Assembly (NCBI RefSeq): GCF_002571385.2
Contig: NW_019217795.1
Coordinates: 524,767 to 588,766 of the forward strand
Length of the DNA: 64,000 bases
Direction: 5' to 3'
DNA from: Stylophora pistillata
Lineage: Eukaryota
Shown here: piece by piece, positions 42,365 to 45,300 of the stretch
Position numbering within the stretch: position 1 is the first letter of the stretch
How the letters are laid out: each line of letters starts with the position of its first letter
Program-made: the position numbers and the translations under genes
The notes under the pieces: model-generated
Seen by the model: only the letters and a program-made list of their open reading frames with translations
What the model was told of the DNA's origin: nothing
The model's database searches: none

Positions 42365-45300
42365 TTATTCACTAGTTCCATAAAGCGTTAACACCCATTT
42401 TGATACCGTGCCTGCATATCCTCCAGCTGAATCAGAGCCTTCATCCTCTTGCTGCAATAAACTATCTAGATCACCCTCATCTTCAGCCACTGGGAACACC
42501 TGATCACGCATGTAATCTTTTCCAAACCGGCCATGATGTATTTCATCATGATAGCTGTCATAATCATCCACGATTTCATCGCGTCGCGCTTTCAACAGGT
42601 CATGTTGTATTAGAACCTTCTCTCTCTCTTCAATATCTGGTTTTGATGGTGCACTTGTAGACTTCTTGTTATGATGGAATCTTAGAATCCATGTACCTTT
42701 TGGGGACTCATCCCAGAAGTGCACAGTCATGAAAGCCCAGTCATTCAGTCCAAATGTGTCCTTATCATTGCGGCGAACAGAAAGTAACTGACTTGTCATT
42801 TTTCCTGGGGAGGTGAGATCTATGCTGATATCACCACGGAATGCCTTGGATAACCTGAAGCTGACAGTGACCTGTACGTGTTCCAGTTTCTCAATGTCAC
42901 ATGCATCTGTGTTGAGGCTCAGCTCCAGGCTACCTCGTAATGGAATATGTCCATCCTTTATAGGGCCAATTACTGAACAATTCTGCTGTTCCCCTACTGG
43001 AATCCAATTCAATGCTGCACTCACCATTTTGGCAGCATTAAGACGACCAAATCCAAACTTGTGATTCACCAACAAACCGGCAGCATTCTTGATCCATCCT
43101 TCATCTTTTGGACTGGTCTTCAATGCAGTTTTCACAACAATGTGTTGAAGATCGCGCCACGTCAGATTTCGGTTTGCTTCCAGAACCAAAGCAAAGATAC
43201 CAGAAGCCAGTGGAGCAGCTGATGAAGTGCCACGGAACCTTGTTGTGCATTTATGCTTAAGATCAGTGGTGACTAGGTCAGCTTCACTAGAGCCACCGCG
43301 GTGAGTGTCTCCCGTGTAAGTTACTGCCATAGTAGATGAACACTGCTCATCATAGTAAGTGGACAGACCATATCGACTGACGGCTCCAATAGATATTGTG
43401 TAGATACTTGATGTGTAGCCATCTGCATTGCAGTCATCGTCAGCAAGACCTCCATTACCAGTAGCCCAAACAAATACACTTCCTTTCCCTGGGGAGAAAT
43501 AATAAACAATTTTGGGTATACCAATTGTAGTGACTGGGTATTTGAGATTTCTTCAATGTAACAACGAGGATGTGTACAGCACTTGCCTTTAAATGGCAGC
43601 CAACTACATTAACCCTTTACACCCTAACATCAGTATGCATATTCTCCATACTGTTCTCTATACATTTCCTAAGGTGCTGACAAGGAGAATTTGTTAAACG
43701 ACCAAGAGCATTTTCAGCTAGAGATCTAATCCTTTATTCTCGTAACCTTACTGTTAGATTTAGAGGAGATATCATAGAGAGAAATAAGATGCTCAGTCAC
43801 TCTTAGTAGTCAGTGAGTTATAACCTGAAGTCACTGTCACACTTAGGACTTTCCCCCTCTAGTCATCAATTTGGGATTGATGCGTTACCCTTGATTGAAA
43901 GTGACTCTCACTGATGAAACAGCAAAGAAAGTGAAGTACAAATTTGCTTAAAATAAATCAAAGGCACAAGACAAGTAACCTGGTGCCTAAAATCAGATCA
44001 CGCTCACGACCACCCCTCCCCCCTCCTCCTGCTCCGCGCAGATTCTTTGTTGCAAGGCTACTGTATTTAATAATATAAAATAGCTTCCTGCAAATTGTGT
44101 TTTCTAAACTTCACATTTTCTCAAGAGTGAACCAAACCCACAAACTCCTTAGTTTTTCTTCAGGCATTAGACAGATAGACATAATTGTTTGGAAAGGGAA
44201 AGTTAAATTTGTGTTTAGAACCAAAATGTTGTAACCCTATTATCAAATCCCAATTTGTAAAGGATTCATTTACACTCAGCTGTCAAAAGTTAGAAATGTG
44301 TTGGCTGAATAAACAATGAGTGCTTTATTAAATACTGTGTTGTTTTACCAGTCACCAAACCGTAGAAGCTTGTAAAACTGAAGCATATCTGCCAGTAAAA
44401 GACCTCTGTTTTCAAGGTCCTGACGCTGTTGTGTAAGCTAAATAACTTTTAAAAACATCCGTGTTAAGAAAATTTTTGTTGTGGTTTCAAGTGGTCAGCT
44501 AACCTTTACGAAAAAAATATTTTACGGAAAAGAAGGTTAAAGAATTTCCTTCTACGAATATTTCGCCTCGATACTGGTTAGTTAATACAAACACTGTACA
44601 TTTTCCTCCCAATAATAATGATTCTTAATGATAACCTCTTAATTTTCCCTCGCATTTCCAGGCTAGATCCTTATCGGAATAAAGTCATTCTAAATTTCAT
44701 TTGTAATGACAAATGAAGACTTCCTTCCTTCTTTCCTTTTGTGGACAATAGAGAAGCTGTGAACAGTTTAAATGCGAGTGGGTGAGCCTACGAAATAACA
44801 TACGTCAAGAAAACTTTTAAACACCCACGCATACTTAATGAATCTCCGGAATATAACATATGGAATCAGAGCAGAAAGTAAAATATAAATTCTTAATTTT
44901 AAGTTAAAAAGAGAGCTGTAGGAAATTTCTGTCTCAGAATACAGCGAAAACTATTCAACCGAAAATTAACAATTCGATATATAAAATCTAGTCTCTGTGA
45001 TAATCAAAACGAAACCTGGCTCTGAGGTTTAAATATCAATAATTAATGACGATCAATGAACTCAACATTCTGAATACTAAGTCTGGCGCAAGCTATCTAA
45101 AGTTGATTTATTTTACAAGGAAAACATGATCTTGATTTTCTCTTTGAAGTAAAGTTTTCTCCCGATCGACGTTGACAAGAACTAATAAATCATCTTTGTG
45201 CCTGAAAATTAAGTTTACATGGCCGTTGTCAAATTAGTTTAGCTTACCTCCTCGACCGTACTTAGCGCCATCTTCAAACGATTGCCTTCCCAAAGGTCCT

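Follow-up and report, generated by a model that had tools for sequence, protein, structure and literature searches.

The 64,000-nucleotide stretch of the Stylophora pistillata genome analysed here (contig NW_019217795.1, positions 524,767 to 588,766; hereafter the window) carries on its minus strand two tandem convertase genes, A and B. In the product of gene A, the P domain is interrupted before its last strand by a long loop insert, within which lies a 16-residue module, HDEIHHGRFG-x-DYMRD. This module is undescribed, very conserved and anthozoan, and it occurs within a convertase clade in which a long P-domain loop takes the place of a C-terminal tail. We propose, with a probability of about 0.4, that the module is a tethered, self-cleavable gate or pseudo-substrate on the enzyme's own cleft. 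The finding bears on which enzymes mature cnidarian neuropeptides and nematocyst proteins, and on how these enzymes are controlled.

The structure of gene A is supported by transcripts; exon 1 (46232-45248) was joined to exon 2 (43488-42365) in two RNA contigs from two studies, and the joint was also present in 13 raw reads. Both contigs cross the loop insert unbroken, and the insert is therefore part of the gene A mRNA. The translation of exon 2, which closes with ...WILRFHH-NKKSTSAPSKPDIEEREKVLIQHDLLKARRDEIVDDYDSYHDEIHHGRFGKDYMRDQVFPVAEDEGDLDSLLQQEDEGSDSAGGYA-GTVSKWVLTLYGTSE and a stop codon, was identical in alignment to the 702-residue S. pistillata 'PC3-like endoprotease variant B'; no paper was found under the accession of gene A in the open-access literature. 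Pfam profiles for the S8 prodomain (PF16470), the S8 peptidase domain (PF00082) and the P domain (PF01483) all scored above cut-off, and the segments LDDG, HGT, GTSS and GNGG align with the Asp-His-Ser triad and the oxyanion Asn of furin. Gene A belongs to the kexin-like proprotein convertases (S8B), for which cleavage after basic residues is predicted. Its 3' untranslated region is long, the RNA contigs (5448 and 4452 bases) extending beyond position 41500, below 42365 on the minus strand, and a very high-copy short repeat occupies 43609-43700 within the intron. At the end of the prodomain (45783-45866, minus strand) RNKR and RYKR stand 24 residues apart and are retained in the Acropora and Montipora orthologues; the stretch that separates them might be released as a second segment. 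At 42827-42841 (minus strand), the P-domain site that we take to correspond to the 'RRGDL motif', gene A and the aligned orthologues read FRGDI and paralogue B reads RRGDL.

The insert stands in for residues 554-560 of furin, which reads WVLEIENTSEANNYGTLTKFTLVLYGT here, so that the loop measures 86 residues in gene A and 7 in furin, a net gain of 79 (furin numbering follows PMC5037460 and PMC2778948). A first-pass annotation of the same DNA had placed about 85 residues here. The Pfam P_proprotein match ends at profile position 72 of 86, directly before the loop, and both AlphaFold models that were made placed a confident last strand behind a low-confidence loop. In the full-length model (65 sequences, predicted template modelling score 0.81) the last strand reached a predicted local distance difference test (pLDDT) score of 97, a weak helix was seen at residues 614-632, and nothing was structured at 633-666. 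The model of exon 2 alone, which had a mean pLDDT of 44 and is reliable in the P domain only, superposed on furin through residue 575 (Z 12.5, root mean square deviation 2.8, 125 aligned residues). Pfam returned no family for the gene A loop and one sub-threshold match for that of paralogue B, the PDB sequences gave no match to the insert at expect values up to 10, and in the ESM Atlas the insert matched P-domain clusters only (0.75-0.78), with nothing for the four-copy region of the related protein P0047. Blank library searches of this kind do not amount to proof of novelty. No description of the insert or the module was found in the open-access literature, outside which most subscription papers lie, including the original Hydra PC3-like paper.

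Conservation was measured across 16 orthologue rows drawn from the gene A clade of a quick tree. They represent 14 clusters (90% identity), of which two contribute two rows each, and other near-identical members were omitted. The quick tree did not include P0047, P0214 and P0054, and full-length rows were added to later trees. Among 357 windows of 16 residues (residues 330-702), the module, at gene A residues 642-657, was the most invariant, with 15 invariant sites against at most 14 in catalytic windows. Pairwise identity was 96% in the module, 86% in the C-terminal half of the catalytic domain, 74% in the P domain, and 23% and 43% in the flanks of the insert. One could regard the loop as a functionless insertion that is simply tolerated, given that these flanks are poorly conserved, that loop length varies across convertases (16-52 residues by the loop and tail measure given below), and that the loop surface is poorly conserved among mammalian members (PMC5037460); yet the module exceeds every scanned catalytic window and is kept across hexacorals, octocorals and paralogues only about 50-56% identical, and this explanation is almost certainly wrong.

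The module was found in Stylophora, Acropora, Montipora and Desmophyllum, and in the octocorals Dendronephthya and Paramuricea (as HGRYKE); neither pattern nor profile search found it in the Sanderia and Hydractinia proteins, or in P0054 and P0200, which we presume to be Hydra-like. Copies were counted in 26 chosen proteins (31 copies, 30 of them full-length) by a pattern that fixes H/Y, G/D, R, D/E, Y and M/I by construction. Gene A has one copy, paralogue B and P0046 have two each, and P0047 has four; in distant copies HGR is followed by YKE, TGE, RGG or FKE. A multi-basic site before Asp or Glu lies within 30 residues upstream of the module in 24 of the 26 proteins. A profile search of all collected proteins and the six reading frames of the window gave no further copy above 0.8 bits. 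With a profile of the insert only, all 23 matches carried a P domain (proteins of 194-2000 residues, the 7,999 best candidates only), so that no free-standing precursor was seen in that search. Two unnamed long-loop convertases lacking the module, P0051 and P0062, carry RHEIEL and R-x-D-[YF]-x-REED segments, which are possibly a diverged form of it, although the profile search gave no match to them. P0045 with P0047, and P0048 with P0211, are suggested tandem pairs of module-bearing paralogues in other anthozoans.

The first-pass annotation had read the segment RR-DEIVDDYDSYHDEIH-HGRFGK as an RFamide precursor embedded in the enzyme, and its account of the letters was accurate: HGRFGKDYM occurs at 42535-42509 with RR from 42586, the upstream basic site is kept as K-A-[RK]-R-D in 16/16 orthologue rows, and the paralogue does carry KE in the corresponding place, in two copies. 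Nor is the string an accident of composition: GRFG[KR] arose in 14 cases when the loop was shuffled 200,000 times, and in 58 when the whole protein was shuffled 40,000 times. The string represents one form that a longer conserved module takes. Release of an amidated ...HGRFamide by cleavage at Gly-Lys and PAM is nonetheless highly improbable. The Gly-Lys is not conserved, one of the two observations that the annotation itself had named as refuting: the residue after GRFG, the sole free position of the module, is Lys in 7 of the 16 rows (Glu in 6, Gly in 3), corresponding to 5 of the 14 source clusters. When 18 rows were placed on a tree from which the insert had been left out, the Lys state required no fewer than 4 changes (bootstrap 4-5) and showed no clustering, 41 of 500 shuffles giving a count as low. 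GRF-G-[KR] occurs in 7 of the 31 copies, and FGK in 16 of 83 copies across 66 distinct motif-bearing C-terminal regions. Phe is replaced by Tyr, Thr or Arg in 10 of the 30 full-length copies; the residue before Gly-Arg is His in 29 of these and Tyr in one (the pattern required either), with neither the Gln nor the protecting Pro that is expected ahead of GRF in a GRFamide precursor, and a single Lys stands where Antho-RFamide has G-R-E. Beyond the supposed cut, DYMRD is as conserved as the residues ahead of it. Moreover, gene A has a single copy inside a P domain, and not a signal peptide followed by many copies without enzyme domains. Because the Gly-Lys is unconserved, Gln is lacking and enzyme domains surround the single copy, gene A was rejected as a GRFamide precursor. 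Lys is retained in Stylophora, Acropora and Montipora, in which an amidated peptide could be a lineage-limited by-product. What survives of the annotation is its fallback of a substrate mimic, which is plausible, or of a non-amidated role, and the case illustrates that matching of the GRF-G-K pattern alone yields false RFamide calls.

Three other identities for the module were considered and set aside. An alternative amide, IHH-amide from HHG-R, has an invariant Gly-Arg, but the next residue is Phe, Tyr, Thr or Arg and DYM is fixed, and it was given little weight. H-D-E-I-H is not the HExxH of a zincin-type metal site, and its first His is replaced in P0045-P0048 and in paralogue B. A likeness of the G-R-F-x-x-D-Y spacing to glucagon-family peptides was dropped because of the variable Phe.

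The insert coincides with the loss of another segment. The 287 collected proteins included 33 without the anchor and 54 without a recognisable last strand; the remainder gave 165 distinct C-terminal regions. A loop of at least 90 residues was combined with a tail of at most 10 in 76 of these (63 with the module and 13 without), and a loop of at most 52 with a tail of more than 10 in 88; one region was short in both and none was long in both. Many rows are close kin, so that this exclusion represents one evolutionary event repeatedly seen and not 76 events. All named long-loop proteins are cnidarian. In P0277 (Hydractinia) and P0058 this P-domain loop extends to about 990 residues, and the last strand lies at the extreme C-terminus.

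The acids Glu257 and Asp264 of furin line its non-primed subsites. The long-loop clade shares the signature WGPKD[DN]GxxFG, in which Lys stands for furin Glu257 and Gly-Arg or Gly-Lys for Asp264-Gly265, and these substitutions may suit the acidic spacers of cnidarian precursors. In a 40-row tree, the 11 rows bearing the signature fell on one side of a branch of moderate support (80/97). The larger group to which they belong (100/99) also takes in kexin-like proteins of Aplysia, Nucella and fish, and is separate from the furin-like rows; four sub-branches within the cnidarian clade were left unseparated. Its grouping, signature loop, long P-domain loop and lack of a tail place gene A in the cnidarian PC3-like clade.

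In the gate that we propose, the loop would be anchored at the site on furin bound by the nanobody Nb14 and would crowd the non-primed side of the cleft, hindering folded substrates. The invariant D-E-I-H-H-G-R could act as a slow pseudo-substrate that spans P7-P1, its Arg at P1 and its acids meeting the Lys and Arg that the clade carries at the furin Glu257 and Asp264/Gly265 positions, and its histidines would make the hold on the cleft pH-dependent. A cut in an acidifying compartment, probably at K-A-R-R-D, would loosen the gate and yield a nicked enzyme of two chains, which the last beta strand would hold together; the loop would thereby do the job of the cleavable C-terminal tail of PC1/3. 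The proposal starts from the observed loop, its location, its pattern of conservation and the absent tail, and from these we infer binding and cleavage. Nb14 contacts Asn558-Thr564 of furin among other segments, and inhibits cleavage of protein substrates, though not that of small peptides, by restricting the non-primed region (PMC5037460); a bulky loop anchored at that site would thus be expected to hinder folded substrates. Koch and Grimmelikhuijzen assumed that the cnidarian convertase cuts R-E and not R-F (PMC7523074), which fits a slow R-F/Y bond in the module. If the gate is real, it would represent a new regulation of a kexin-family enzyme, at a surface so far known from an inhibitory nanobody.

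Several observations weigh against a gate. In the full-length model the module has no structure (residues 641-660, pLDDT about 24-26) and is packed confidently on nothing; that model does, however, include the prodomain, which would itself fill the cleft. The three residues right after the invariant Arg are the least conserved, whereas D-Y-M beyond them is fixed, and variable residues after P1 are not usual for canonical substrate-like inhibitors. Medusozoan relatives have the basic loop and a long insert without the module, which indicates that the basic patch does not need it. The four tandem copies of P0047 are more than one cleft can hold, and the pattern used gave no upstream site in paralogue B or P0046. 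Finally, Nb14 is described as binding at a distance from the cleft proper (PMC5037460).

A somewhat unlikely alternative is that the module serves as a lumenal docking or sorting motif, which would bind a receptor, chaperone or inhibitor and route the enzyme to dense-core vesicles or to the forming nematocyst; extra copies would give avidity, and the module would replace the sorting helix of the absent tail. Short binding motifs are often disordered, conserved and repeated, and the module is predicted disordered, very conserved and repeated 1-4 times. The tail is absent in all 76 long-loop regions, and C-terminal helices serve granule sorting in PC1/3, PC2 and PC5/6A (PMC10548473). Relatives occur in nematocyst proteomes, and convertases are expressed in Nematostella neurons. 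However, the charged helix before the basic site, which by eye is common to medusozoan inserts, is a better candidate for sorting; the likely cut falls between it and the module, and the sorting explanation names no partner.

It is also conceivable, if unlikely, that the enzyme is a precursor as well, and that cuts at R-D release a non-amidated DE[IL]HHGR-x-x-x-DYM peptide, possibly Tyr-sulfated, that would signal after co-secretion. P0047 and three cluster mates resemble multi-copy precursors, having four copies with acidic linkers, mostly flanked by R-D; module position 14 is Arg or Lys in 29 of the 30 full-length copies and position 15 is Asp in 27, and the module is better conserved than the enzyme core. 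Cnidarian processing is known to employ single basic and acidic sites (PMC7523074, PMC11087051, PMC9525235). Set against this are the lack of a free-standing precursor among the 23 profile matches (within the size range and candidate set given above), and the His, not Arg, that precedes the gene A module, such that the product would be a 24-residue acidic peptide; typical cnidarian neuropeptides are short and acid-free (PMC7523074). HHGR, HGRF and DYMR were not present in two Nematostella peptidomics supplements (PMC11087051, PMC9525235), a weak negative, as these are curated or amide-focused lists with long cells cut, from other species, and the Nematostella orthologue sequence was not compared. 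Gate, sorting or partner motif, and released peptide are not mutually exclusive. Anthozoan PC3-like convertases might even be enzyme and precursor in one chain, the excised peptide, ancient, non-amidated and in up to four copies per enzyme, first restraining the enzyme and then signalling, a combination that we regard as doubtful. In any case the module offers a precise and cheap target, being a 16-residue peptide with a few residues open to mutation, for which public raw peptidomics exist (PXD030145); if it is released, an overlooked non-amidated anthozoan peptide would be at hand.

Table 1. Features of convertase genes A and B in the window (positions are those of the window; each range is read on the strand given).
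Feature	Position	Strand	Remarks
Gene A exon 1	45248..46232	-	hydrophobic N-terminus, S8 prodomain, RNKR and RYKR sites, catalytic Asp and His
Gene A intron	43489..45247	-	1759 bases, GT..AG; RNA contigs and 13 raw reads
Gene A exon 2	42365..43488	-	oxyanion Asn, catalytic Ser, P domain, loop insert, last strand; stop 2 residues past YGT
WGPKDDGKTFGRP	45300..45338	-	Lys and Gly-Arg at furin Glu257 and Asp264-Gly265; cnidarian-clade signature
P domain up to penultimate strand	42677..42889	-	
Loop insert, 86 residues (23 D/E, 11 K/R, 4 H)	42413..42670	-	replaces furin residues 554-560
Predicted helix, start of insert (KPDIEE...QHDLL)	42593..42643	-	73% pairwise identity among orthologues
KARR-D, likely convertase site	42581..42592	-	K-A-[RK]-R-D in 16/16 orthologue rows
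Module HDEIHHGRFG-x-DYMRD	42503..42550	-	15/16 positions invariant in 16 orthologue rows
Lys codon of GRF-G-K	42518..42520	-	sole variable module position (K 7, E 6, G 3)
Acidic, poorly conserved linker past module	42437..42484	-	43% pairwise identity, residues 668-685
Last P-domain strand	42374..42418	-	G-T-V aligns with furin Gly561-Thr562-Leu563
Tandem paralogue B, five coding exons	50409..57222	-	exon structure read from sequence alone
Paralogue B module copy 1 (NDLSHGRFKEDYMSL)	50655..50699	-	
Paralogue B module copy 2 (RELIHGRFKEDYMKS)	50541..50585	-	

Over the enzyme core, paralogue B is 56% identical to gene A. Elsewhere in the window, a 3034-base stretch occurs at 27499-30532 and again at 31686-34719 (99.9% identical), flanking a gap of 966 N (30533-31498), and is likely an assembly duplication; a 797-base repeat, 94% identical, lies at 58488-59273 and 59859-60649, near a gap of 20 N (59674-59693). 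UDP-glucuronosyltransferase exons are present at 15526-17983 (minus strand), with a Pfam match for 17354-17983. An open reading frame at 7890-8432 (plus strand) had no Pfam match and starts with WFQNRR, presumably a homeodomain helix-3-like motif.

Several known systems resemble gene A, the cnidarian convertases among them. Shpirer et al. (PMC6134521) defined NSP6 (nematocyst-specific protein 6) from the nematocyst proteome of Hydra, as a clade of cnidarian convertases to which P29146 belongs and which stands beside other cnidarian paralogues. The likeness of gene A to the wider cnidarian 'PC3-like endoprotease' clade, NSP6 included, lies in the source names of the orthologues and in the S8 prodomain, S8 and P domains; the consulted parts of the NSP6 paper make no mention of a loop insert, a module or an absent tail. 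Nematostella XP_001630912/914/915, with adjacent accessions, are tandem paralogues like genes A and B. PC3-like enzymes have been reported from Chrysaora venom and Ceratonova polar capsules; Hayakawa et al. listed four Nematostella PC3-like genes under peptide processing, one of them marked cnidocyte (PMC9525235), and Nematostella peptidergic neurons express convertases (PMC13003132). The PCSKX orthologous group has been described and stated to be lost in vertebrates (bioRxiv 10.1101/802215). The 100/99 grouping with Aplysia, Nucella and fish is as expected for it, in a tree without a named PCSKX row; the bilaterian rows differ by short loops, long tails and the lack of a module, and the fish member of the group stands in contrast to the vertebrate loss stated in the preprint.

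The tail of PC1/3 (PCSK1) autoinhibits the enzyme and is removed by cleavage. Like the gene A insert, it is an additional piece joined to the P domain and combines a charged helix with a basic site; in gene A, however, this piece interrupts the P domain ahead of the last strand, where a cut would nick rather than trim, and the PDB sequence and Pfam searches found no sequence likeness between the two. A sorting role is also attributed to the PC1/3 tail (PMC10548473). In the furin-Nb14 complex (PDB 5jmo; PMC5037460), furin Asn558-Thr564 corresponds to the anchor position of the insert, but Nb14 is a folded foreign protein, whereas the insert is covalently attached, is disordered for the most part by prediction and can likely be cleaved. 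Precursors of Antho-RFamide (pQGRFamide) carry Q-G-R-F-G-R-E repeats (PMC7523074; PMC11087051) and share with gene A the GRF-G string, acidic surroundings and the secretory pathway. Gene A differs from them in having no Gln, no conserved basic residue after Gly and no build of signal peptide plus repeats. Finally, proSAAS and 7B2 are convertase regulators that are themselves cut into peptides, and are separate gene products, whereas the module of gene A sits within the enzyme chain. Should anthozoan PC3-like convertases indeed prove to be enzyme and precursor together, they would represent an equivalent of proSAAS that is built into the enzyme and that cnidarian peptidomics, with its focus on amides, would have missed.

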